A stretch of 64,000 nt of DNA from Nocardioides sp. (GCF_044226305.1 NZ_JBGAHF010000013.1:33883-97882); one strand, 5' to 3'; shown: positions 17,258 to 33,581, numbered from the stretch's first letter. Numbers and translations are program-made. The notes: generated from the letters alone by a model not told the origin.

Positions 17258-18517
17258 CTAACCAGAGGCCAGGCGGGCCGTGACCTCGTCCCAGATGACA
17301 TGCGCCAGGGCGGTCTTGGACCCCCGCGGGACCTCGACGGCCGGGCCGTCGGCGGCGAGGATCACGGCCTCGTTCTCGGAGCTCCCGAACACCGCTCCCC
17401 CGCTGACGTCGTTGACGACGAGGAGGTCGCAGCCCTTGCGGGCGAGCTTGGCCCGGGCCAGGTCGAGGACCGACCCGGTGTCGTCGCCGGTCTCGGCGGC
17501 GAACCCCACCACCACCTGCCCGGGGCGGAGCCGCTCGGCGCTGAGCTCGCGGAGGATGTCGGGGTTCTGGGTCAGCTCGAGCGGCGGGACCGCGCCGTCG
17601 GCCGTCTTCTTGATCTTGTGCTCGCTCGCGTCGACGGGGCGGAAGTCGGCCGGCGCGGCCGCCATCACGACGGCGTCGGCCGCGGCCGCCGCGGAGACGA
17701 CCTCCTGGCGGAGCTGGGCGGTGGTCTCGACCCGGACCACCTTCACGCCCGCCGGGTCCAGCAGCGTGGTGTTGGCCGCCACCAGGGTCACCTCGGCACC
17801 GCGGGCCGCCGCGGCCCGCGCGAGCGCGTAGCCCTGGAGCCCGGACGAGCGGTTGCCGAGGAAGCGGACCGGGTCGAGGTACTCGCGGGTGCCGCCCGCG
17901 GACACGACGACCCGGCGACCGGCCATGTCGGGCCTGGTGGCGCCGCGGCCGAGCACCTCACGGCAGACGTCGAAGATCTCGGCGGGCTCGGGCAGCCGGC
18001 CCTTCCCGGTGTCCTTGCCCGTGAGCCGGCCCTCGGCCGGCTCGACGACGAGGCCGCCCCGCTCGCGCAGGGTGGCGACGTTGGCCTGGGTCGCCGGGTG
18101 CTCCCACATCTCGGTGTGCATCGCGGGGGCGAACACGACCGGGCAGCGGGCGGTGAGCAGGGTGTTGGTGAGCAGGTCGTCGGCGAGGCCGTGGGCCGCC
18201 TTGGCCATCACGTCGGCGGTCGCCGGGGCGACCACCACCAGGTCGGCCGACTGGCCGATCCGCACGTGCGGCACCTCGTGGACGTCGGTCCACACGTCGG
18301 TCGCCACCGGCTTGCCGGACAGTGCCGACCAGGTCGGGGCGCCCACGAACTCCAGTGCTGCCGCCGTCGGGACCACGGTCACGTCGTGGCCGGACTCGGT
18401 GAACAGCCGGAGCAGCTCGCAGGCCTTGTACGCCGCGATGCCGCCGGACACGCCCAGGACGACGCGGGGCCGCCCCCCGGACTGGGGAGCGGCCTCGGAC
18501 GTGGTGGTGCTGGTCAG
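17258..18517 (-). CDS. coaBC: bifunctional phosphopantothenoylcysteine decarboxylase / synthase
   Basis: RVVLGVSGGIAAYK, APAMHTEMW, GGTREYLDPVRFLGNRSSG, VGFAAET. The start must lie upstream of GTG 18451; CTG at 18517 is proposed. Confidence 0.93.
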   Translation of the reverse strand: MTSTTTSEAAPQSGGRPRVVLGVSGGIAAYKACELLRLFTESGHDVTVVPTAAALEFVGAPTWSALSGKPVATDVWTDVHEVPHVRIGQSADLVVVAPATADVMAKAAHGLADDLLTNTLLTARCPVVFAPAMHTEMWEHPATQANVATLRERGGLVVEPAEGRLTGKDTGKGRLPEPAEIFDVCREVLGRGATRPDMAGRRVVVSAGGTREYLDPVRFLGNRSSGLQGYALARAAAARGAEVTLVAANTTLLDPAGVKVVRVETTAQLRQEVVSAAAAADAVVMAAAPADFRPVDASEHKIKKTADGAVPPLELTQNPDILRELSAERLRPGQVVVGFAAETGDDTGSVLDLARAKLARKGCDLLVVNDVSGGAVFGSSENEAVILAADGPAVEVPRGSKTALAHVIWDEVTARLASG

Positions 18518-18527
18518 CGGATCACTC

Positions 18528-18851
18528 TCAGGCGCCCGCGGCGTCGGCGGCGGCAGCCGCGGCGGCGGCCTCCTCGGCAGCGAGCTCGGCGGGGTCGATG
18601 TCCTCGCAGGTGAGGAGGTCCTCGTTGATCTCGCGGAGCGCGATCGAGAGCGGCTTCTCCTGCACGTGGGTGTCGACCAGCGGGCCGACGTACTCCAGCA
18701 GGCCTTCGCCGAGCTGGGAGTAGTAGGCGTTGATCTGCCGGGCGCGCTTGGCGCTGTAGAGGACCAGCTTGTACTTGCTGTCGGTCTTCGTCAGCAGGTC
18801 GTCGATCGAGGGGTTGGTGACGCCCTCGGCCGCGATGGTGGGTCCGGACAC
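18528..18851 (-). CDS. rpoZ: RNA polymerase omega subunit
   Basis: [39 protein letters not shown]. Confidence 0.96.
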
Positions 18852-18860
18852 GCTAAAGCC

Positions 18861-19460
18861 TCACAGATCAGTCGGGGATGGCTCCATCAAGGCTACCAAC
18901 TGCTCGGCTGCATCGTGAATCTCGTGGTTGACGATGGTCCGGTCGAACTCGTCCTCGGCGGCCAGCTCCTCGCGTGCGGTCTCGAGCCGGCGGGCGCGCT
19001 CGTCCTCCGACTCGGTGCCGCGGCCGACCAGCCGGCGCACCAGCTCCTCCCACGACGGGGGCTTCAGGAACACGAACAGCGCCTCGGGCATCGTCCGGCG
19101 GACCTGCCGGGCGCCCTGGAGGTCGATCTCGAGCATCGCCGGCCGACCGGACGCCAGCGCCAGGTCGACGGGCTGGCGCGGGGTGCCGTAGCGCGCCGCC
19201 TTGTGCACCACGGCCCACTCGAGCAGCTCGTCGTGGGCCACCATCCGGTCGAACTCCTCGTCGGAGACGAACCAGTAGTGCACGCCGTTGACCTCCCCCG
19301 GGCGCGGCGGTCGCGTGGTGGCGGAGACGGAGATCCACACCTCGGGGTGGCAGCGGCGCACCTCGGCGGCGACCGTGCCCTTGCCGACCGCGGTCGGGCC
19401 GGCGAGGACCAGCAGACGGGACCGGCGCTCGGGAGCGGCCGCACCTGCCGGCTCAGTCAC
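18861..19460 (-). CDS. gmk: guanylate kinase
   Basis: Start reassigned to GTG at 19460; [38 protein letters not shown]. Confidence 0.96.
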
Positions 19461-19773
19461 GCGCGGCGAACTCCTTCTCCAGCGCGGCGACCTGCTTGGC
19501 ACCGAGCCCGCGGACCCGGCGGCTCTCGGCGATCCCGAGCTTCTCCATCAGCTGGCGGGCCCGGACCTTGCCGAGGCCGGGCATCGACTGGAGCAGGTCG
19601 ACGACCCGCATCTTGCCGATGACGTCGTTGCGCTGGCCCTCGTGGAGGACGTCGACGATCGAGGCGCCCGAGTTCTTGAGCCGGTTCTTCACCTCGGCCC
19701 GCTCCCGGCGGGAGGCGGCGGCCTTCTCGAGGGCCGCCTGGCGCTGTTCGGGGGTGAGCGGGGGCAGAGCCAC
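19453..19773 (-). CDS. mihF: actinobacterial integration host factor (mIHF/sIHF)
   Basis: [43 protein letters not shown]; canonical position between pyrF and gmk. Confidence 0.95.
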
Positions 19774-19841
19774 GGGCGGGTCCTTGTCAGGGAGGTCGGG
19801 GAGGTCGGGAGGGGCGCGGCCGGTCCGGCCGATGCGAGGTC

Positions 19842-19871
19842 AATCTAGTCAGAACTGTTGTGGCGCAGCAA
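19842..19871 (-). promoter_or_regulatory. sigma70-type promoter of mihF
   Basis: Minus strand TTGCTG (19871-19866), 18 nt, TAGATT (19847-19842), about 70 nt upstream of the start. Confidence 0.6.
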
Positions 19872-19941
19872 TCGAGGCCGGACTGGTCTTGGCGGCTCTC
19901 CCCGGCCGGCGACGACTCGGGCACCGGTCCCGGTGCCGCGG

Positions 19942-20388
19942 CTAGAGCGTGAGCGGGGTCTTGCACACGTCGCGGGCCTGCTGGTCGAGGTCCTGGAGCG
20001 CGCGCAGCGTGGTCCCGCTGCCCAGCTGCTTCGCCGCGGCGTCGATCCGGGCCCTGTCCTCGGCGGAGAGCCCGGCCGGCGGGTGGGCGCGGTCGTACGT
20101 CGCCGGGTCGACCCCCGCGTCCTCGAGGGCCTGCTGGAGCGCCTCGATGCTGGTCACCACCTGCTGCCACTCGTCGGTGATGTCACCGGGCGCCTGGTCC
20201 TGCAGCTCGCGGAAGATGTCGAGCGCCGCGAGGAGGGCGTCGGGGTCCCCGCTGCCGACGATGTCGCTGAGCTCCTGCTGGTGGTCCTTCACCGCCCCGC
20301 AGTACGCGTCCTGGTCGGACCCGCCGCAGGCGGTGAGCGTCGGCAGCACCACGCCGACGACCGCGCCGAGGACCAGGACCCGCCTCAC
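19942..20388 (-). CDS. hypothetical lipoprotein
   Basis: GTG at 20388 overlaps the pyrF stop; MRRVLVLGAVVGVVLPTLTAC (lipobox), then GGSDQDAYC and an acidic helical domain with a second Cys near the C-terminus. Confidence 0.75.
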   Translation of the reverse strand: MRRVLVLGAVVGVVLPTLTACGGSDQDAYCGAVKDHQQELSDIVGSGDPDALLAALDIFRELQDQAPGDITDEWQQVVTSIEALQQALEDAGVDPATYDRAHPPAGLSAEDRARIDAAAKQLGSGTTLRALQDLDQQARDVCKTPLTL

Positions 20389-21206
20389 GCGCGGAGCTCC
20401 TCGTTGGTGCGCAGCACGGCCTCGCGCATCGCCGCCACGTCCGGCCCGAGCCGGAGGACCTCGCGGGAGGAGCTGGGCAGCACGGCCGCGGCGGCACCGA
20501 AGATCCGGCGCACGTCGGCGACGGTCCCGCCCTGCGCGCCGAACCCCGGCGCGAGGACCGGCCCGCCGAAGGCGAGGTCCTCCTCGGTGGAGCCGATGGT
20601 CGCGCCGACCACGGCACCGAAGGAGCCGAGCGGCTCGGCGTCGGCGTTGAGACGGCGCAGGTGCTCGAGCACCCGGCCGGCGACCGTGCCGCCGTCGTCG
20701 GTGCGGGCGTGCTGCACCTCGGGACCCTCCTTGTTGGAGGTGAGGGCGAGCACGAACAGCCCGGCGTCGTGCCGCCGGGCGGTGTCGACGAACGGGTCGA
20801 GGGACCCGAAGCCGAGGAACGGGCTGACCGTGATCGCGTCCGCGGCGAGCGGCGAGGCGGGGTCGAGGTAGGCGTCGGCGTACGCCTGGCTGGTCGAGCC
20901 GATGTCGCCGCGCTTCACGTCGAGCAGCACCAGGGCCCCGGCAGCACGCGACGCGGCCACCACCTGCTCGAGCACGGCGACGCCGCGGCTGCCGAACCGC
21001 TCGTAGAAGGCCGACTGAGGCTTGACCACCGAGGCGTGCGGCGCCACCGCCTCGACGGTCGTCAGCGCGAACCGCTCGAGCCCGGCCACGTCGTCGTCCA
21101 GGCCCCACTCCTGCAGCAGGGCGGCGTGCGGGTCGATCCCGACGCAGAACGGCCCCCGCTCGGCGATCGCGGCGTGCAGGCGGGCACCGAACCCGTGGTC
21201 GGTCAT
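20385..21206 (-). CDS. pyrF: orotidine-5'-phosphate decarboxylase
   Basis: Start MTDHGF (21206); CVGIDPH, KPQSAFYERFG, LLDVKRGDIGST, LTSN, GAVVGAT, PGFGAQGG. Confidence 0.96.
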   Translation of the reverse strand: MTDHGFGARLHAAIAERGPFCVGIDPHAALLQEWGLDDDVAGLERFALTTVEAVAPHASVVKPQSAFYERFGSRGVAVLEQVVAASRAAGALVLLDVKRGDIGSTSQAYADAYLDPASPLAADAITVSPFLGFGSLDPFVDTARRHDAGLFVLALTSNKEGPEVQHARTDDGGTVAGRVLEHLRRLNADAEPLGSFGAVVGATIGSTEEDLAFGGPVLAPGFGAQGGTVADVRRIFGAAAAVLPSSSREVLRLGPDVAAMREAVLRTNEELRA

Positions 21207-22057
21207 GGGGTCTCCTCGGTTCTCGGGGCGGGCTCGCCCGCCATCGTGGCGAGCTCGCTCGCCAGGCGGGCGATGGTGGTGGGGTCGTGGAGGAGCGCGG
21301 TGCCGACCTGGACGGCGATCGCGCCGGCGTCGAGGAAGCTCCGGGCGTCCGCGGCCGTGGCGATCCCGCCGCAGCCGACGATCTCGGCGTCCGGCAGCGC
21401 GGCCCGCACCTCGGTGACGCAGCGCAGGGCGACCGGGCGGATCGCGGGACCGGACAGGCCGGCATCGCGGCCGTCGGGCAGGGCGGCCGGCAGGGCGCCG
21501 CCGACCACCACGGCGCCGGCGCCGGCGTCGAGGACCGCGCGCGCGGGCTCGGCGACCCGGCCGAGGGCGGGGCGCAGCTTGGCGAGCACCGGGATGCCGC
21601 GGGGCAGGTCGCGGGCGACGGCTCCGACCAGGGCGGCGGCGTGGAACGGCTCGCCGCCGACCGCCACCTCGATCGCGGCCAGCCCGGGCGCGCGTCCCAG
21701 CCTCCGGGCCACCTCGGCGTGCTCCCCCAGCGTCGCGCCGCCGATGGAGACGACCACCCGGGTGCCCGACCGCGCCAGCCAGGGCAGCTCCCCGGCGAGG
21801 AACGGCTCCAGGCCCGCGCTGGGCTGGCCGGTGGCGTGCAGCATCCCGGACGGCGTCTCGAGCACCCGTGGCGGGTGGTCGCCCGGGCGCGGGTTGAGCG
21901 TCACCGAGCGGGTCACGAACGCGCCCAGGGCGCCGAGGTCGCCGCCGGGGAGGTACGGCGCGAGCTCCCGGCCGGTGCCGCCGCACCCGGCGGCCACCAG
22001 CACGGGCCCGGCCAGCGTCAGGCCGGCGAGGCCGACCGTCGTCGTCGAGGCGCTCAT
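21203..22057 (-). CDS. class-1B dihydroorotate dehydrogenase-like flavoprotein with degenerate active site
   Basis: Start MSASTT (22057); homologous blocks PRVLETPSGML, AKLRP, GLSGPAIRP, GCGGI, VQVGTA, but no NxSCPN loop. Confidence 0.8.
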   Translation of the reverse strand: MSASTTTVGLAGLTLAGPVLVAAGCGGTGRELAPYLPGGDLGALGAFVTRSVTLNPRPGDHPPRVLETPSGMLHATGQPSAGLEPFLAGELPWLARSGTRVVVSIGGATLGEHAEVARRLGRAPGLAAIEVAVGGEPFHAAALVGAVARDLPRGIPVLAKLRPALGRVAEPARAVLDAGAGAVVVGGALPAALPDGRDAGLSGPAIRPVALRCVTEVRAALPDAEIVGCGGIATAADARSFLDAGAIAVQVGTALLHDPTTIARLASELATMAGEPAPRTEETP

Positions 22058-22857
22058 CCCAGCTCCGCCCAGCGGACCCGGTCGCCGCGGACCACCGGGC
22101 CCTCCGTGCAGGCGCGGACCTCCCGGGCCACACCGTCCTCGCCGACCACCGGCAGCGGGCACCCGCGGCACAGCCCGGTCGCGCACGGCTGCGGGACGGC
22201 GACGGCCGTCTGGCTCCAGGCGCCCTGCCCCTCGGCCGCCGCGGCGACCGCGTGCAGGGTGTCGACCGGCCCGGCGGCGTACACGACCTCGGCCGCCGCG
22301 CGGGCGAAGGTGTCGACGAGGACGTCGGCCGCACGACCGCGGATGCCGACCGAGCCGTCGGCGGTGACGACGGTGACCGCCCGGGCCGAGCGCCGCGCCT
22401 CGAGCGCGGAGAGCAGGTGTGCCTCGTCGCGGGCGGCCACGACCAGCGTGACCGCGCACCCCCGCTCGCGCAGCCGCTCGGCCAGCGGGAACAGCGGCGC
22501 GGCGGCCCAGTCCTCCCCCACCAGCACGCAGCTGACCGGCTCCTTCGGGAGCGCGAACGGCCGTCCGAGCGGCCCGGTCAGCTCCAGCTTCGCGCCGACC
22601 GGGAGCCCGGCGAGCCAGGAGCCTCCGGTGCCCGCGGGCTCGACGACGAGCTGGAGGGCGGCGCCGTAGCCGCCCACCGTCCGGACCCGGTGGATCCAGT
22701 ACGACCGGCGCGCCAGGTGGGCCGAGTCCGCCAGCGAGACGGCGACGAAGGTGCCCGGCCGGAACCGCTCGGGGACGCCGGGTGCCACGACGGTCAGGTG
22801 CCGGTAGGCCCCGACCCGCTTCGAGTCGAGCACCTCCCCCGTGACGTGCACCGTCAT
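22054..22857 (-). CDS. pyrK: dihydroorotate dehydrogenase electron-transfer subunit-like (FAD, 2Fe-2S)
   Basis: Start MTVHVT (22857); [16 protein letters not shown]-terminal CATGLCRGC...ACTEGPV four-Cys cluster motif. Confidence 0.82.
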
Positions 22858-23869
22858 CCTCGGGCGTCCTGGACGCCGCGCACGATCCGTCGCGGCCACA
22901 GCGGGCCCTCGTAGACGAGGGCGGTGTAGCCCTGCAGGAGCGTCGCCCCCGCGTCGAGCCTGGCCCGGGCGTCCTCGACGGTCGTGATGCCGCCGACGCC
23001 GATCAGCGTGAGGTCCGGTCCGACCCGCTCGCGCAGCAGCCGCACCACCTCGAGTGCCCGCGCGGTCAGCGGCGCACCGGACAGGCCGCCGGCACCGACC
23101 TCCGCGACCCGGGCGGCGGGCGTGCGCAGGCCCTCGCGGGAGATCGTGGTGTTGGTGGCGATGATGCCGTCCAGGCCGACCGCGAGCGCGAGGTCCGCGA
23201 CGCCGAGGACGTCGTCGTCGGCCAGGTCGGGGGCGATCTTCACGAGCAGGGGCACGCCCTCGGCCACCCGCTGGACGGCGGTCAGGATCGGCTCGAGCTT
23301 CTCGACGGCCTGGAGGTCGCGCAGGCCTGGCGTGTTCGGAGAGCTGACGTTGACCACCAGGTAGTCGGCGTACGGCGCCAGCAACCGCGCGGACTTCTCG
23401 TAGTCGCGGACCGCCTCCTCCTCGGGGACGACCTTGCTCTTGCCGATGTTGACACCCAGGACGGGCGCTCCGTCCGCCGTCGAGCGCCGGCCGCGGGCCC
23501 GGAGCCGGTCGGCCACCACCTCGGCCCCGTCGTTGTTGAAGCCCATCCGGTTGACGACCGCGCGGTCATCGGGGAGCCGGAACAGGCGCGGCTGCGGGTT
23601 GCCGGGCTGCGCCTCACCGGTGACGGTGCCGACCTCGACGTGCCCGAAGCCGAGCGCGGCGAGGCCGTCGATGCCGACCGCGTTCTTGTCGAACCCCGCC
23701 GCCAGCCCCAGGACGTTGGGGAAGGTCAGCCCCAGCGCCTGCACGGGGCGTCCCGGCACCCGCCGCCGGGCGGTCACCGGCCGAGCCGCCCGGATCGCCC
23801 GGAACGCGGAGTGGTGCGCCCGCTCCGGGTCGGTCCGGGTGAGGACGTGGTCGAAGAGGGCGCGGTAGA

Positions 23870-23873
<4 letters not shown>
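22854..23873 (-). CDS. pyrD: quinone-dependent (class 2) dihydroorotate dehydrogenase
   Basis: Start GTG at 23873; [44 protein letters not shown] (catalytic Ser), VKIAPD, ATNTT, GGLSG. Confidence 0.96.
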
Positions 23874-27216
<3,343 letters not shown>

Positions 27217-27217
<1 letters not shown>

Positions 27218-28428
27218 CAGGCGTCCTCTCCTGGCGTGCTGTTTCCGTTCAATTGCTCGGTCTGGCCCGCATCCGGGCCCGAATCTGCGTCACTTCCCAG
27301 CAATTGAACGGAATCGACGCCACCGCCCATCAGCTGGACGAACCGGTCGAAGAGGTACGCCGCGTCGTGCGGGCCGGCGGCGGCCTCGGGGTGGTACTGG
27401 ACGGAGAATCCCCGCAGCCTGCCGGCCGCGTCGCGGAGCTCGAGGCCCTCCACGACGTCGTCGTTGAGGCACACGTGGCTCACGGTCGCCTCCCCGTACG
27501 GCGTGGTGGTGCTGCCCTCGAGCGGCGCGTCGACCGCGAACCCGTGGTTGTGGGCGGTGACCTCGACCTTGCCGGTGGTGCGGTCCATCACGGGCTGGTT
27601 GATGCCGCGGTGGCCGTACTTCAGCTTGTAGGTGCCGAACCCGAGGGCCCGGCCGAAGAGCTGGTTGCCGAAGCAGATCCCGAAGTAGGGGATCCCCGCG
27701 GCGAGCGCGCCCTGGAGCACCTCGACCTGCTGGGTCGTCGCCGCCGGGTCGCCGGGGCCGTTGGAGTAGAACAGGCCGTCCGGCCCCACGGCGCGGATGT
27801 CGGCGAGGGTCGCGGTGGCCGGCAGCACGTGCACCTCGATCCCGCGCTCGGCCATCCGGTGCGGCGTCATCGACTTGATGCCGAGGTCGAGCGCGGCCAC
27901 CGTGAGGCGCTTGTCGCCGATCGCGGGGACGACGTACGCGGCCTGGGTCGAGACCTCGGACGCGAGCTCGGCGCCGGCCATCTCGCCGGACTGCCGGACC
28001 CGGGCCAGCAACGCGGCCGGGTCGGTCTCGGTCGAGGAGATGCCGACGCGCATCGCGCCCCGCTCGCGCAGGTGGCGGGTCAGGGCGCGGGTGTCGATGC
28101 CGGAGATGCCCACCACGCCCTGGGCTCGCAGCTCGTCGTCCAGCGACCGCTGGGAGCGCCAGCTGGACGCGCGCCGGGCGGGGTCGCGGACGACGTAGCC
28201 GGCCACCCAGATCCGCGCGGACTCCGGGTCCTCGTCGTTGACCCCGGTGTTGCCGATGTGCGGCGCGGTCATCACGACGACCTGGCGGTGGTACGACGGG
28301 TCGGTCAGCGTCTCCTGGTAGCCGGTCATGCCGGTGTTGAAGACCGCCTCGCCGAACGTCTCCCCCTCGGCGCCGTAGGTCTCGCCGCGGAAGGTGCGTC
28401 CGTCCTCGAGGACCAAGATCGCGGTCAC
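27217..28428 (-). CDS. carA: carbamoyl-phosphate synthase small subunit with an atypical C-terminal extension
   Basis: Start GTG at 28428; [52 protein letters not shown]; about 35 extra residues after FDRFVQLM. Confidence 0.96.
27243..27313. repeat. 71-bp element bounded by a perfect 15-bp inverted repeat (REP/MITE-like)
   Basis: TTCCGTTCAATTGCT (27243-27257) and AGCAATTGAACGGAA (27299-27313), with an inner GGCCCG-catc-CGGGCC hairpin; AT-rich relative to its surroundings. Confidence 0.75.
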
Positions 28429-29345
28429 TGCGCCTCCTCCGGCTCGGTGCGGCCCTCCAGCTCGGTGAGGAAGGCGGTGAGGCCGGCGACGTAGGTGTCG
28501 TGGTCGTCGGCCAACGCGAGGTGGGAACCCTGCGGGCTGTGGTGGTAGCGACCCCGGGGCAGCTGGTCGGCCATCCACCGCAGGTGGGCGGGGTCCATCG
28601 TGTCGTGCTCGGCGCCCATGACCAGGGTCGGCACGTCGATCCGGGCCAGGTCGCGGCTGCGGTCCCAGTCCCGGAACGAGCCGACCGCGCCGAGCTCGCT
28701 CGGGCCGTTCAGCAGGTCGTAGACCTCGTGGTTGATGTGGGCGAACGAGGTGACGACCACCTCCGGCCACTCCTCGAGCGGCAGCCGGCAGACGTGGTCG
28801 ACGTAGTAGTGCTCCATGAGGAGCGCCTCGTACGCCGGGTCGCCGGTCTCGCCCGCTGCCTCCATCCGCTTGATCTCGGCGAGCGCGTCCTGGTCCATCG
28901 CCGGCATCAGCACCTGCTCGGCGTACGCGTTGTAGGCCGGGATGCTCGACATCATGTTGGAGACGACCAGCCCCTGGAGCGCGTCGGGGTGGGCCAGGGC
29001 GTACTCGATCCCGAGCATCCCGCCCCACGACTGCCCGTAGAGCACGAACCGGTCCAGGCCGAGGGCGGTGCGCACCTGCTCGACCTCGTCGACGAACCGG
29101 TCGACCTGCCACAGCGACTCGTCGTGGGGCTGGTCGGAGAGGAACGACCCGAGCTGGTCGTAGAAGTACAGCTCGAACCCAGCGGCGGCGAGCGGCTCCT
29201 CCAGCGGGAGGAGGTACTCGTGGGTGGCGCCGGGGCCGCCGTGCAGCATCAGCACCTTCAGGCGCGGGTTGTCGCCGACCTGGCGGGTCCAGACCTCGAA
29301 GGTCCCGGCGTGCGTCTCGACCGGGATCCTCCGCTCACCGCTCAC
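28425..29345 (-). CDS. proline iminopeptidase-like alpha/beta hydrolase (peptidase S33)
   Basis: Start GTG at 29345; LHGGPG, YDQLG, nucleophile elbow GQSWGG, EHDTM, GSHLA. Confidence 0.88.
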
Positions 29346-30621
29346 TGCAGCTTCCCGTCGAGGACGGTGGGCGTGCCGCGCAGGAACGTCGCGACCACGC
29401 GACCGGGCAGCTCCATCCCGCGGTACGGCGTGTTGCGGCTCAGGCTCGCCGACTCGGCCGCGTCGACCGTGCGGCGCGCGGCGGGGTCGTAGAGCACGAC
29501 GTTCGCCGGCTCGCCGGCCTCGAGGGGCCGGCCGTGCCGGTCGGCGACCCGGCCGATCCGCGCCGGCGCGTAGGACATCCGGTCCGCCACGCCGGCCCAG
29601 TCCAGGAGGCCGGTGTCGACCATCGTCTCCTGCACGATCGAGAGCGCGGTCTCGAGACCGAGCATCCCGAACGCCGCGGCGGCCCACTCGCAGTCCTTGT
29701 CCTCGTGGGGGTGCGGCGCGTGGTCGGTGGCGACGACGTCGATCGTCCCGTCGGCCAGGCCGGCCCGGAGCGCCTCGGCGTCGGCGGCCGTGCGCAGCGG
29801 CGGGTTGACCTTGTAGATGGGGTCGTAGGTCGCGGCCAGCTCGTCGGTGAGCAGGAGGTGGTGGGGGCACGCCTCGGCGGTGACCTGGACCCCCTTGCCC
29901 TTGGCCCAGCGGACCAGCTCGACGGAGCCGGCGGTCGAGACGTGGCAGACGTGCAGCCGGGAGCCGACGTGCTCGGCGAGCAGCACGTCGCGGGCGATGA
30001 TCGCCTCCTCGGCGACGGCCGGCCAGCCGGCCAGCCCGAGGCGGCCGGAGAGCTCGCCCTCGTTCATCTGGGCGCCCTCGGTCAGCCGCGGCTCCTGGGC
30101 GTGCTGGGCGACGACCCCGTCGAAGGCCTTGACGTACTCCAGCGCCCGGCGCATCAGCACCGCGTCGCTCACGCACCGGCCGTCGTCGGAGAAGACCCGG
30201 ACCCGGGCGGCCGAGTCGGCCATCGCGCCGAGCTCGGCGAGCCGCTCGCCCTGGAGGCCGACGGTCACCGCGCCGACCGGGAACACGTCGCAGTAGCCGG
30301 CCTCGCGGCCCAGCCGCCAGACCTGCTCCACGACGCCGGCGGTGTCGGCGACCGGTTCGGTGTTGGCCATCGCGTGGACGGCGGTGAAGCCACCCATCGC
30401 GGCGGCCTGCGTGCCGGTCTCGACGGTCTCGGCGTCCTCGCGGCCCGGCTCGCGCAGGTGGGTGTGGAGGTCGACGAGGCCCGGGAGCGCGATGAGCCCG
30501 GTGCCGTCGACCACCTCGGCGTCCGCCGGCGCGCCGGCCGCGTCGGCGATGACGCCGTCGCGCAGCAGCAGGTCGGTCGGCTCTCCGCCGAGGATGCTGA
30601 CGTTCTTGATCCAGTACGTGG

Positions 30622-30625
<4 letters not shown>
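29342..30625 (-). CDS. pyrC: dihydroorotase
   Basis: Start GTG at 30625; [35 protein letters not shown]. Confidence 0.96.
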
Positions 30626-32228
<1,603 letters not shown>

Positions 32229-32305: not shown

Positions 32306-32905
32306 TCAGCCCTCGACCTCGTCCGCCCAGGCCGCGTGCTCCCGCCTGGCCCACCGCGCGGACACCGCGCCGACCCGCATCCCCCGCCGCGCCTCGGGGT
32401 CGCGGATCGCGAACGCGACGTGCCCCAGCACCAGGAGTCCCAGCCCGAGGGCAGCCCAGTCGTGCACGAAGGTCGCCCCGGAGCGCCACGACAGCCGCAC
32501 CAGCCCGGTCCAGAACATGATCGCGCCGGTCCCCAGGAGGACGCCGGTGGACCCGGCGACCAGCCAGGCGTTCACCTTCTGCCCCGCGTTGAACTTGCCG
32601 ACCCGGATCCGCCCGTCGCGTCGGGTCCGGGTCACCAGCCACCGCCAGTCGGACGGGGTCAGCCGGTCGAGCCGCCGCAGGTCGGAGCGGTACGCCGCCG
32701 ACAGCGCACCGAGCAGCATCGGGACGGGCAGCGCCAGCCCGGCCACCACGTGCACCATCTCGACGGTGTGCCGGTGCCCGACCACCAGCATCACCGAGCC
32801 GTTGTAGAGGACCGCGGCGGTGACGAGGCACGTGCCCATGAGGATCGCGACGGCCCGGTGCACGGCGCGCTCGGCCGGCGTGAAGCGCGCGAGGGTGTCA
32901 CTCAC
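32306..32905 (-). CDS. cytochrome b-type membrane subunit (FdnI / Ni-hydrogenase cytochrome b-like)
   Basis: Four hydrophobic segments with His at VHRA, VHVV, VHDW and GHVA; GKFNAGQK motif; its start overlaps the molybdoenzyme stop. Confidence 0.8.
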   Translation of the reverse strand: MSDTLARFTPAERAVHRAVAILMGTCLVTAAVLYNGSVMLVVGHRHTVEMVHVVAGLALPVPMLLGALSAAYRSDLRRLDRLTPSDWRWLVTRTRRDGRIRVGKFNAGQKVNAWLVAGSTGVLLGTGAIMFWTGLVRLSWRSGATFVHDWAALGLGLLVLGHVAFAIRDPEARRGMRVGAVSARWARREHAAWADEVEG

Positions 32906-33581
32906 CGATGAGCCCGTCGAGGGGATAGCCGCGCTGCTCCCAGTAGCCCGGGCGGTTGGCGGTCACCAGCTCGATCCCGGAGAGCCACTTGGTGCTCTTG
33001 TAGCCGTACATGGGCGCGGCGTAGACCCGGACAGGGCCGCCGTGGTCGTGGGTGACCGGTCGGCCGTACATCGTCAGCGCGACGAGCACGTCGTCCGCCC
33101 GCGCCTGGTCGAGGGTCATGTTCTCGGTGTAGGCGCCGTCGAAGGAGGTGAACCGCACGGCGGTCGCGTCGGGCGTGGGCGCCGCCCGCTCGACCAGGTC
33201 GGCGAGCCGGACGCCGCTCCAGGGGACGTCGTCGACCTGCCAGCCGGTCACGCAGTGGAAGTCGCGGGTCAGGTGCACCTGCGGCAGCTCCTGGAGGTCG
33301 GCGAGCGTGTACGTCGTCGGTTCGGCCACCTCGCCGGACACCGTGAGCCGGTAGGTCGTCGCGTCGCGCGGCTCCACCGGACCGGTGACGGAGTAGTAGC
33401 GGAAGGTGTTGCCGAGCGGGACCAGGCTCGTCAGACCGGTCGGGTCGTGCGCGAGCAGCCGGCTCAGCCGGTCCTGGACGGCGGCCCCGGTCAGCACCCC
33501 CACCGCACCGAGCCCGAGCAGGCCGAGGACGACGCGACGCCCGACCGGCGTCCCCTCGAGCTCGGAGCGCTCGTCCGGCAT
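32898..33581 (-). CDS. sulfite-oxidase-family molybdopterin oxidoreductase (MsrP/YedY-like)
   Basis: Twin-Arg segment VGRRVVLGLLGLG; DFHCVTGW (Mo-ligating Cys), WSGV.L, HGGPVR, YGYKSTKWL..I, GYWEQRGY. Confidence 0.87.
   Translation of the reverse strand: MPDERSELEGTPVGRRVVLGLLGLGAVGVLTGAAVQDRLSRLLAHDPTGLTSLVPLGNTFRYYSVTGPVEPRDATTYRLTVSGEVAEPTTYTLADLQELPQVHLTRDFHCVTGWQVDDVPWSGVRLADLVERAAPTPDATAVRFTSFDGAYTENMTLDQARADDVLVALTMYGRPVTHDHGGPVRVYAAPMYGYKSTKWLSGIELVTANRPGYWEQRGYPLDGLIGE

Follow-up and report, generated by a model that had tools for sequence, protein, structure and literature searches.

The closest characterized relative of the gene pair analyzed here is the dihydroorotate dehydrogenase (DHOD) B of Lactococcus lactis, which consists of the PyrDB and PyrK subunits (PDB 1EP1-1EP3, 5KSW, and 5UE9). 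The pair lies in the pyrimidine operon of a 64,000-nucleotide stretch of DNA from Nocardioides sp. (GCF_044226305.1, NZ_JBGAHF010000013.1:33883-97882; hereafter, the window), where carB, pyrD2 (encoding a class-2 DHOD), pyrK-like, pyrD1B-like, and pyrF are consecutive, all on the minus strand. The PyrK-like and PyrD1B-like (hereafter 1B-like) proteins have the two folds of the L. lactis enzyme, are encoded by adjacent genes in the same order, and show ~21% and ~34% identity to its subunits, respectively. Lys170, the GLSGP, GxGG, and VGTA motifs, and the four 2Fe-2S cysteines of the L. lactis enzyme are retained in the pair. In contrast, the window pair lacks Cys135 together with its loop, as well as Asn72, Asn132, Asn137, and Asn197, carries Arg in place of Lys48, has a shortened 197-219 hairpin, and contains degenerate versions of the GxGxxP, CGP, and RxxS motifs of PyrK. 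By every sequence criterion, the 1B-like protein cannot act as a normal dihydroorotate (DHO) dehydrogenase, that is, as a DHO:NAD+ oxidoreductase. We consider it probable (roughly 0.65) that the pair is a conserved, selected pseudoenzyme that is dead in this capacity.

Several other known systems resemble the pair in part. The NfnA and SudB-type PyrK homologs (4YLF, 5JCA_S), which are the best matches of the PyrK-like protein in both sequence and fold, share with it an FNR-like domain for flavin adenine dinucleotide (FAD) and nicotinamide adenine dinucleotide (NAD) and a C-terminal 2Fe-2S domain, but they bind FAD and NAD(P)H and are partnered by a GltD-like protein, whereas the Nocardioides protein is partnered by a DHOD barrel and its nucleotide motifs are degenerate. 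The fungal class-1A DHODH-like proteins (PMC10395836) are likewise encoded by a second DHODH-like gene in addition to a class-2 DHODH and do not complement pyrimidine auxotrophy, but they lack a PyrK partner and are active oxidases whose substrate has changed. Prozymes, such as those of trypanosomatid AdoMetDC and deoxyhypusine synthase (PMC6221367, PMC3663545), are similarly dead paralogs under selection in the pathway of a live enzyme; however, they form hetero-oligomers with their own live paralogs, whereas in Nocardioides the live enzyme belongs to a different DHOD class. Judged by its motifs and profile scores, the pair is unlike any characterized system in its working: a DHOD B by descent, it fails the catalytic features of both subunits as well as the curated thresholds. 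In a full-text literature search, we found neither a dead PyrDB/PyrK pair described nor any account of actinomycetes with both class-2 and class-1B enzymes; PMC3224940 refers to PyrK and Actinobacteria solely in an argument about tree rooting.

The 1B-like protein matches the Pfam DHO_dh domain (PF01180, E = 1.2e-36), and its nearest solved structure by sequence is L. lactis PyrDB (E = 2e-35); against the NCBIfam equivalog PRK07259, it scores 182.7 bits, below the cut-off of 269. The AlphaFold2 (AF2) model built from a family alignment (predicted local distance difference test, pLDDT, 80.8; predicted template modeling score, pTM, 0.83) has DHOD B structures as the top PDB matches (5KSW/1EP3, template modeling (TM) score 0.80), with low confidence in the lid region (residues 60-74) and at residues 190-194, both located over the former active site. 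Alignment with L. lactis PyrDB (1EP1_A) reveals K48R, N72H, N132A, deletion of C135, P136, and N137, and N197G/T198A, such that the orotate-binding N72, N132, N137, and N197 are replaced by His, replaced by Ala, deleted, and replaced by Gly, respectively, and Lys48 is replaced by Arg. The retained residues are K170, A23/G25, and those of the phosphate-binding GLSGP, GxGG, and VGTA motifs. Among the 39 sites that are conserved at 90% or more in two sets of canonical PyrDB sequences, the window protein differs at 12, including all six catalytic or substrate sites but only 6 of the 33 others (Fisher p = 2.8e-4; given that these six sites had served to choose the canonical sets, what the test chiefly shows is the degree to which the remaining sites are preserved).

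A preliminary description of the window, made from the sequence alone, had portrayed the 1B-like protein as catalytically stripped by selective loss of substrate and catalytic residues, and the residue losses and the failed cut-off agree with that portrayal. All the motifs quoted there were found where it had placed them, those of the 1B-like protein being VTRSVT, MLHATGQPSAG, VVVSIGG, IEVAVGGEPFH, AKLRP, VVGGAL, GLSGPAIRP, GCGGI, and QVGTA, and the alignment with 1EP1 confirms the changes of the conserved Lys to TRS and to MLHATG, QPSAG, EVAVGGEP, and GGA. The change of ANVAG to VSIGG (N104S), which had been counted with them, was rejected as a sign of degeneration because Ser104 occurs in each of the 120 Streptomycetaceae PyrDB sequences, which are mostly canonical. 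The flavin-binding features listed as retained, AKLRP, GLSGPAIRP, GCGGI, and VGTA, are indeed present, but the case for flavin retention is weaker than had been stated: the changed residues include N132, N197, and K48, whose contacts in family-1 enzymes extend to the isoalloxazine ring.

In the PyrK-like protein, the sole Pfam domain detected is the C-terminal DHODB Fe-S domain (PF10418), and both the best NCBIfam score (84.6 vs a cut-off of 220) and the score for the PyrK equivalog (78.4 vs 224) fall below the thresholds. Its sequence matches in the PDB are NfnA (4YLF, E = 9e-19) and L. lactis PyrK (1EP1_B, E = 1e-13), and its AF2 model, also from a family alignment (pLDDT 76, pTM 0.71), is closest to the NfnI small subunit (NfnI-S) and PyrK (TM 0.76-0.81). 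As described previously, the four 2Fe-2S cysteines are kept (CATGLCRGC...C), but the NAD-binding GGGxG reads GEDWA (within GEDWAAAP). The cysteine columns are at least 99% conserved in 80 Nocardioides-type PyrK-like sequences and invariant in a second alignment of database matches. The nucleotide-binding motifs read RSYW in the window vs RALW in the genus consensus (FAD), DWAAAP vs GYAAAP (GxGxxP), and AAGP in both (CGP). The PyrK homologs of Streptomyces sp. and Kitasatospora retain the NAD motif as GYGSAP and GHGSVP, whereas the Ser of the FAD RxxS motif is Trp in Nocardioides and Phe in Kitasatospora, and is kept as Ser in Streptomyces sp. NBC_01304. Because the NAD and FAD motifs of the PyrK-like protein are degenerate genus-wide, an NADH-fed conduit role for the pair appears unlikely.

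The adjacent class-2 PyrD is intact, as had been noted: it passes the curated cut-off of the quinone-dependent DHOD equivalog (NF003648; 495 bits, cut-off 433), matches Pfam DHO_dh with E = 5.6e-85, contains the NRMGFNN, NVSSPN (with the Ser base), and ATNTT motifs, and has the N-terminal extension characteristic of class 2.

A scan of one genome per species yielded 80 Nocardioides or Nocardioides-like loci, to which three closer relatives (95%, 79%, and 81% identity) were added by exact protein look-up, for a total of 83 Nocardioides-type loci. The order carB-pyrD2-pyrK-like-1B-like-pyrF is conserved in all 80 species loci and likewise in the three closer relatives; an intact class-2 PyrD adjoins the pair in every Nocardioides locus; and the 4-nt overlaps between the genes are retained in most loci. 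Across the 76 aligned Nocardioides 1B-like sequences, Lys48 is invariably replaced by Arg, and Cys135 is never present (Ala in 52, Pro in 8, Gly and Ser in 6 each, Val in 4), which places the loss of the catalytic base before the radiation of the genus. Position 137, Asn in canonical enzymes, is Asp in 66 of the 76 sequences, and S172 is replaced by Arg in 75, whereas K170 is kept in all. The Asn residues are partly retained at positions 72 (47 Asn, 27 His), 132 (69 Asn), and 197 (65 Asn). The segment from N197 to GLSG comprises 14 residues in all 76 sequences, compared to 23 in 82 of 88 canonical Streptomycetaceae sequences and 69 of 88 other canonical ones.

The 12-residue deletion of the catalytic loop is found in only 6 of the 76 sequences (those of the window and of loci L004, L017, and L081-L083), and further loop deletions were detected in N. 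dubius (P0123), in one locus with a 6-residue deletion, and in several metagenomic clusters. Since the loop is deleted in the subclade that includes the window, the retained role does not appear to require it. Thus, the earlier question of lineage is answered in two parts: the residues are lost clade-wide, but the dead state is genus-wide and older than the lineage of the window, the loop deletion being a later step within one subclade. Barrel and phosphate-site residues are kept throughout Nocardioides (G25, G57, R62, E65, G69, G80, E130, K170, G189, G219, S221-P223, P227, G248-G249, G263-A264, and G270), constraint is gone or altered at S24, K48, N72, G75/L76, S134-N137, and N197/T198, and a set of 1B-like residues is near-invariant and specific to the genus (R161, R172, R177, G196, A201/A202, R216, H275, T278, and the REPFH motif). 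Such a pattern is what is expected of a protein that still needs its fold, and probably a phosphate-bearing ligand, but no longer its DHO pocket; it leaves room for a new site.

At the GC content of third codon positions observed here (GC3, 96-99%), synonymous distances saturate and the absolute ratio of nonsynonymous to synonymous substitution rates (dN/dS) is inflated, and the genes were therefore compared within the same pairs. The estimates from all pairs (0.30-0.43 for all genes), inflated by this saturation, were replaced by those from 13 independent closest species pairs, for which the pooled dN/dS is 0.205 for pyrD2, 0.137 for pyrK-like, 0.180 for 1B-like, and 0.187 for pyrF. Both genes of the pair are under clear purifying selection, as strong as that acting on pyrD2 and pyrF, and pyrK-like is the most constrained of the four. 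For the subclade with the loop deletion, the pooled values, in the same order, are 0.27, 0.18, 0.28, and 0.20; for the window against L082, they are 0.135, 0.143, 0.29, and 0.132; and against L081 (95% identical), 0.019 for pyrK-like and 0.22 for 1B-like. These values suggest that the 1B-like gene is somewhat relaxed in the subclade of the window.

The pair is regarded as intact in 83 of the 83 loci, and no frameshift confined to it was found in them. The four pyrK-like genes that are broken come from assemblies with additional frameshifts in carB, pyrD2, or pyrF, and the breaks therefore look like assembly errors. In Nocardioides ungokensis (L023; CP059164, labeled a complete genome), carB, pyrD2, and pyrK-like are all frameshifted within 5 kb, and these frameshifts are most likely uncorrected long-read errors rather than signs of pseudogenes. 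Apparent stops in eight 1B-like high-scoring segment pairs were rejected as disruptions, being the natural stop codon read through by tblastn. Clade-wide loss of the residues with dN/dS well below 1, by which the preliminary description proposed to recognize maintenance, is what we observe (K48R in 76 of 76; 0.18 and 0.14), and the opposite pattern, with NxSCPN kept in relatives and dN/dS near 1 or frameshifts in this lineage, is not. Its view of a pair that is maintained rather than decaying is in line with the genus-wide loss, the low dN/dS, and the lack of pair-specific frameshifts.

The pair is probably transcribed, along with pyrD2, given a 2.3-kb contig from a biofilm metatranscriptome that covers positions 21284-23553 (pyrD2, pyrK-like, and 1B-like) with ~98% identity, although DNA carry-over is possible; the listed differences of this contig are mostly synonymous. 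An in-frame 3-nt insertion (CGT) at 22036, near the 5' end of the 1B-like gene, is present in metatranscriptome (X11) and metagenome (X2) contigs and represents a strain polymorphism. Near-identical sequence is also present in activated-sludge and bioreactor metagenomes.

Outside Nocardioides, PyrK/PyrDB pairs are found in Streptomycetaceae, namely, Kitasatospora, Streptacidiphilus, some Streptomyces, Embleya, and Allostreptomyces, which include the closest canonical relatives found beside a PyrD2 and share with the Nocardioides pair Ser104 and, in Kitasatospora, the operon slot. Streptomycetaceae PyrDB are mostly canonical (Cys in 105 of 120, Lys48 in 99 of 120): most retain K48, NxSCPN, and NT and look active, whereas K48R together with C135A/G/V, a combination of losses that is fixed in Nocardioides, occurs in a minority (scattered Kitasatospora and Streptacidiphilus copies, for example, C135A in the K. 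cineracea group). In the two Streptomycetaceae loci examined, the class-1B pair shares an operon with the class-2 PyrD (Kitasatospora sp. NBC_00315, L084, 4911-8817; Streptomyces sp. NBC_01304, L085, 3842-7960), and the pair is apparently functional, so that two DHOD systems would coexist there; the gene order is carB-pyrD2-pyrK-pyrDB-pyrF-mihF-gmk-rpoZ in Kitasatospora and carB-pyrD2-pyrF-pyrK-pyrDB in Streptomyces sp. NBC_01304.

Evolution probably started from a live PyrK/PyrDB accompanying PyrD2: given that the Streptomycetaceae operon is the same but holds a mostly canonical pair, an ancestral second enzyme would have become fixed in Nocardioides in a dead form. Under this scenario, the ancestral actinomycete operon would have had a working NAD-linked DHOD B that coexisted with the quinone-linked PyrD. 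The later fate of this DHOD B would have been continued activity, loss, or, in Nocardioides and a scatter of other lineages, fixation as a dead but selected protein. When 50%-identity representatives were searched exhaustively, ~40 of the 150 top-ranking clusters proved to lack the canonical set of residues; K170 is kept in these, but the pocket residues vary widely. The remaining clusters are strictly K-N-N-(N/S)-N-S-C-P-N-K-N-T. The named members of the degenerate clusters are Marmoricola, Nocardioides dubius, Intrasporangium, and unclassified Actinomycetota. With degenerate copies in Marmoricola, Intrasporangium, some Kitasatospora, and metagenome-assembled genomes (MAGs) of Actinomycetota, the module may be conserved more widely in this phylum.

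Because the pair is intact across the loci and selected as strongly as the real enzymes, we favor a maintained pseudoenzyme over a decaying relic. The features by which a pseudoenzyme is operationally defined, that is, absence of catalytic residues, purifying selection, and expression, are all found here, with transcription probable and the loss of activity inferred from the sequence. According to this explanation, the two genes would descend from those of an NAD-dependent class-1B DHOD (PyrK2-PyrD2 heterotetramer) that still works in some actinomycetes, whereas in Nocardioides DHO oxidation would be performed by the class-2 enzyme. The pair would have lost both ends of the electron wire, that is, the DHO/orotate pocket and the base in the PyrD-like subunit and the NAD(H) and FAD RxxS motifs, now degenerate, in the PyrK-like subunit. 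The middle of the wire would survive, with the TIM barrel, its phosphate-binding glycine motifs, and Lys170 on the one subunit and the FNR-like fold with all four 2Fe-2S cysteines on the other. The pair would be co-transcribed with pyrD2 and pyrF, to which it is translationally coupled. The proteins would still form a PyrK-like/PyrD-like complex, as suggested by gene adjacency, translational coupling, and a residual co-variation of distances that is weak (r = 0.38 after removal of one divergent clade). An apparent mirror-tree co-evolution of pyrD2 with pyrK-like was rejected as evidence of interaction because the partial r dropped from 0.60 to 0.27 without one divergent clade. Only with low confidence would we predict that the complex carries a 2Fe-2S cluster and perhaps a flavin. 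As our best, though tentative, suggestion, the pair might persist as a flavin/[2Fe-2S] accessory complex that does not turn over a substrate and that instead serves, for example, as a redox relay or sensor or as an assembly partner in the pyrimidine pathway. A prozyme-like or redox-accessory Fe-S/flavin heterotetramer that has no substrate sites of its own and tunes de novo pyrimidine synthesis by interacting with the class-2 PyrD or PyrF, or by sensing redox state or iron, seems a rather improbable specific form of such a role.

Several observations weigh against a maintained pseudoenzyme. At this GC3, absolute dN/dS values are unreliable, so that only between-gene comparisons hold, and between the most closely related members of the window's subclade, nonsynonymous sites of the 1B-like gene change roughly twofold faster than those of its neighbors. 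The barrel of this clade, with N132, N197, and K48 changed, may have only weak affinity for flavin or may accommodate another phosphorylated ligand instead, and the near-invariant R161, R172, R177, R216, H275, and REPFH could mark a new active site and hence a new enzyme rather than a pseudoenzyme. Furthermore, degenerate pairs located between carB and pyrF without an adjacent pyrD2 were found in Intrasporangium sp. DVR (L086, 6075-7957) and in an Actinomycetota MAG (L087, 5185-7022), with K48P or K48R and Cys135 replaced by Val or Ala.

A new enzyme is the main rival, in the form of a flavin/Fe-S oxidoreductase with a different substrate or acceptor and a remodeled, more open active site. Consistent with this possibility, new residues around the old active site are conserved across the genus (R48, R172, G196, A198, R216, D137, and REPFH), the capping hairpin is trimmed in all copies, the NAD region of the PyrK-like protein is conserved in a new form rather than scrambled, and the fungal class-1A DHODH-like proteins proved to be dihydrouracil oxidases (PMC10395836). 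We nevertheless consider it unlikely, given that the position of the catalytic base varies within the genus (Ala/Pro/Gly/Ser/Val), N72 alternates between Asn and His, the window's clade has deleted the loop, including D137 and the Arg of REPFH, with no loss of constraint on the rest, and the wider degenerate family shows great variability in its pocket residues. Residual DHO dehydrogenase activity with an alternative base would accord with Ser135, the class-2 base, in six Nocardioides copies and Asp137 in most, with the DHOD name given to the 1B-like protein in Joint Genome Institute (JGI) and some NCBI records, and with the Intrasporangium and MAG loci that have no adjacent pyrD2. It is, however, scarcely credible for a protein in which the window loop is absent and the four orotate-binding Asn and Lys48 are all changed, whose base position is Ala in 52 of 76 copies, which the curated models of the Prokaryotic Genome Annotation Pipeline (PGAP) reject, the names given being tRNA-dihydrouridine synthase or HisA/HisF-related TIM-barrel protein, and which an intact PyrD2 adjoins in every Nocardioides locus.

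Slow decay, in which the presence of the class-2 PyrD made the class-1B enzyme redundant and left it a relic heading to loss, is largely refuted by these data, and we regard it as quite improbable: the gene is intact in 83 of 83 loci, the pooled dN/dS values of 0.18 and 0.14 equal or beat those of pyrD2 and pyrF, many residues are genus-invariant with new lineage-specific ones conserved, and the 4-nt overlaps are kept in most loci. These facts outweigh the K48R and C135A/G/V changes in scattered Kitasatospora and Streptacidiphilus copies, the stepwise course of degeneration (base lost genus-wide, then loop deleted in the window's clade), the roughly twofold faster evolution of the 1B-like gene in the closest pairs of that clade, and the fact that the pair is not known from most Streptomyces (S. 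coelicolor has carB-pyrD-pyrF). There is also very little chance that the reading frames are kept solely to let ribosomes reach pyrF via the coupled ATGA junctions, with the proteins themselves useless. The 4-nt overlaps at all junctions of the window, and in most loci, would fit such a role, but it would preserve the frame rather than the amino acid sequence, in contrast to the dN/dS of 0.14-0.18 and the dozens of invariant residues, including the Fe-S cysteines; in Streptomyces sp. NBC_01304, moreover, the pair sits after pyrF and yet is kept.

A pair in which both subunits lack substrate sites and yet are under enzyme-grade selection genus-wide provides a clean, testable case of a bacterial pseudoenzyme, in a domain of life where useless genes are usually deleted quickly. 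The live pairs of Streptomycetaceae, the base-less ones of most Nocardioides, and the loop-less ones of the window's clade form a natural series that could show the non-catalytic roles of parts of the DHOD B scaffold. The public names of the two proteins disagree (dihydroorotate dehydrogenase, tRNA-dihydrouridine synthase, HisA/HisF-related TIM-barrel protein, iron-sulfur cluster-binding protein, and hypothetical protein), such that metabolic reconstructions can assign an NAD-linked DHOD to Nocardioides, which almost certainly has none.

The open reading frame (ORF) coordinates show 4-nt GTGA/ATGA overlaps at all four junctions, carB/pyrD2, pyrD2/pyrK-like, pyrK-like/1B-like, and 1B-like/pyrF, in agreement with what had been reported for pyrD2 to pyrF (Table 1).

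Table 1 Genes of the pyrimidine operon in the window and sequence features of the pair.
Feature	Position	Strand	Remarks
pyrR	31575-32180	-	Operon member
pyrB	30622-31578	-	Operon member
pyrC, then alpha/beta-hydrolase gene, then carA	between pyrB and carB	-	Operon order
carB	23870-27217	-	Upstream neighbor; stop overlaps pyrD2 start
pyrD2 (class 2)	22854-23873	-	339 aa; GTG start overlapping carB stop
pyrK-like	22054-22857	-	267 aa; homolog of the DHOD B electron-transfer subunit
Altered FAD-binding RxxS motif, RRSYWIH	22690-22710	-	L. lactis RRPISIS
Degenerate NAD-binding GxGxxP motif, GEDWAAAP	22495-22518	-	Genus consensus GEGYAAAP; L. lactis GGGIGVPP
Four 2Fe-2S cysteines C225, C230, C233, C250 (CATGLCRGC...C)	22096-22185	-	Align with the cluster cysteines of L. 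lactis PyrK
pyrD1B-like	21203-22057	-	284 aa; TIM-barrel homolog of the DHOD B catalytic subunit
K48R (VTRSVT) and N72H / LQNPG->QPSAG (MLHATGQPSAG)	21812-21916	-	Alignment and motif search
Site of deleted catalytic loop, IEVAVGGEPFH	21641-21673	-	12-residue deletion particular to the window's subclade
Shortened beta-hairpin from N197 to GLSG (VVGGALPAALPDGRDAGLSGPAIRP) and N197G	21434-21508	-	9-residue deletion in all Nocardioides copies
pyrF (orotidine monophosphate decarboxylase, subfamily 2)	20385-21206	-	273 aa; TIGR02127 276 bits vs cut-off 110.6; ATGA overlap with 1B-like
Small lipoprotein gene	19942-20388	-	148 aa; after pyrF
mihF, gmk, rpoZ, coaBC	beyond lipoprotein gene	-	Operon order continues

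In one divergent Nocardioides clade (L035, L042, L073, L075, L076, L079, and L080), pyrD2 and especially pyrK-like are much more diverged from the other loci than are carB, pyrF, and the 1B-like gene (distance ratios of 1.5 and 1.8, respectively, vs 1.2-1.4), possibly as a result of replacement or recombination of a pyrD2-pyrK block or of joint acceleration.

The product of the small gene that follows pyrF has a predicted signal peptide ending in the lipobox LTAC and gave no match in a Pfam search; a lipoprotein gene occupies the equivalent position in the relatives L082 and L083. This gene overlaps the pyrF stop by GTGA and is therefore translationally coupled to the pyrimidine operon. Between pyrC and carA, an Abhydrolase_1 coding region spans ~28425-29350 on the minus strand, the listed ORF being inflated upstream by a high-GC open frame. 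The GC content of the window is ~72-77%, and very long overlapping shadow ORFs on both strands of the 17300-27300 region (for example, 24077-27307 on the plus strand, 1076 aa) are a by-product of the ~75% GC rather than genes. Just upstream of pyrR, at 32306-33581 on the minus strand, a gene with a molybdopterin oxidoreductase domain is followed by a cytochrome b561-family gene, forming an MsrP/MsrQ-like pair.

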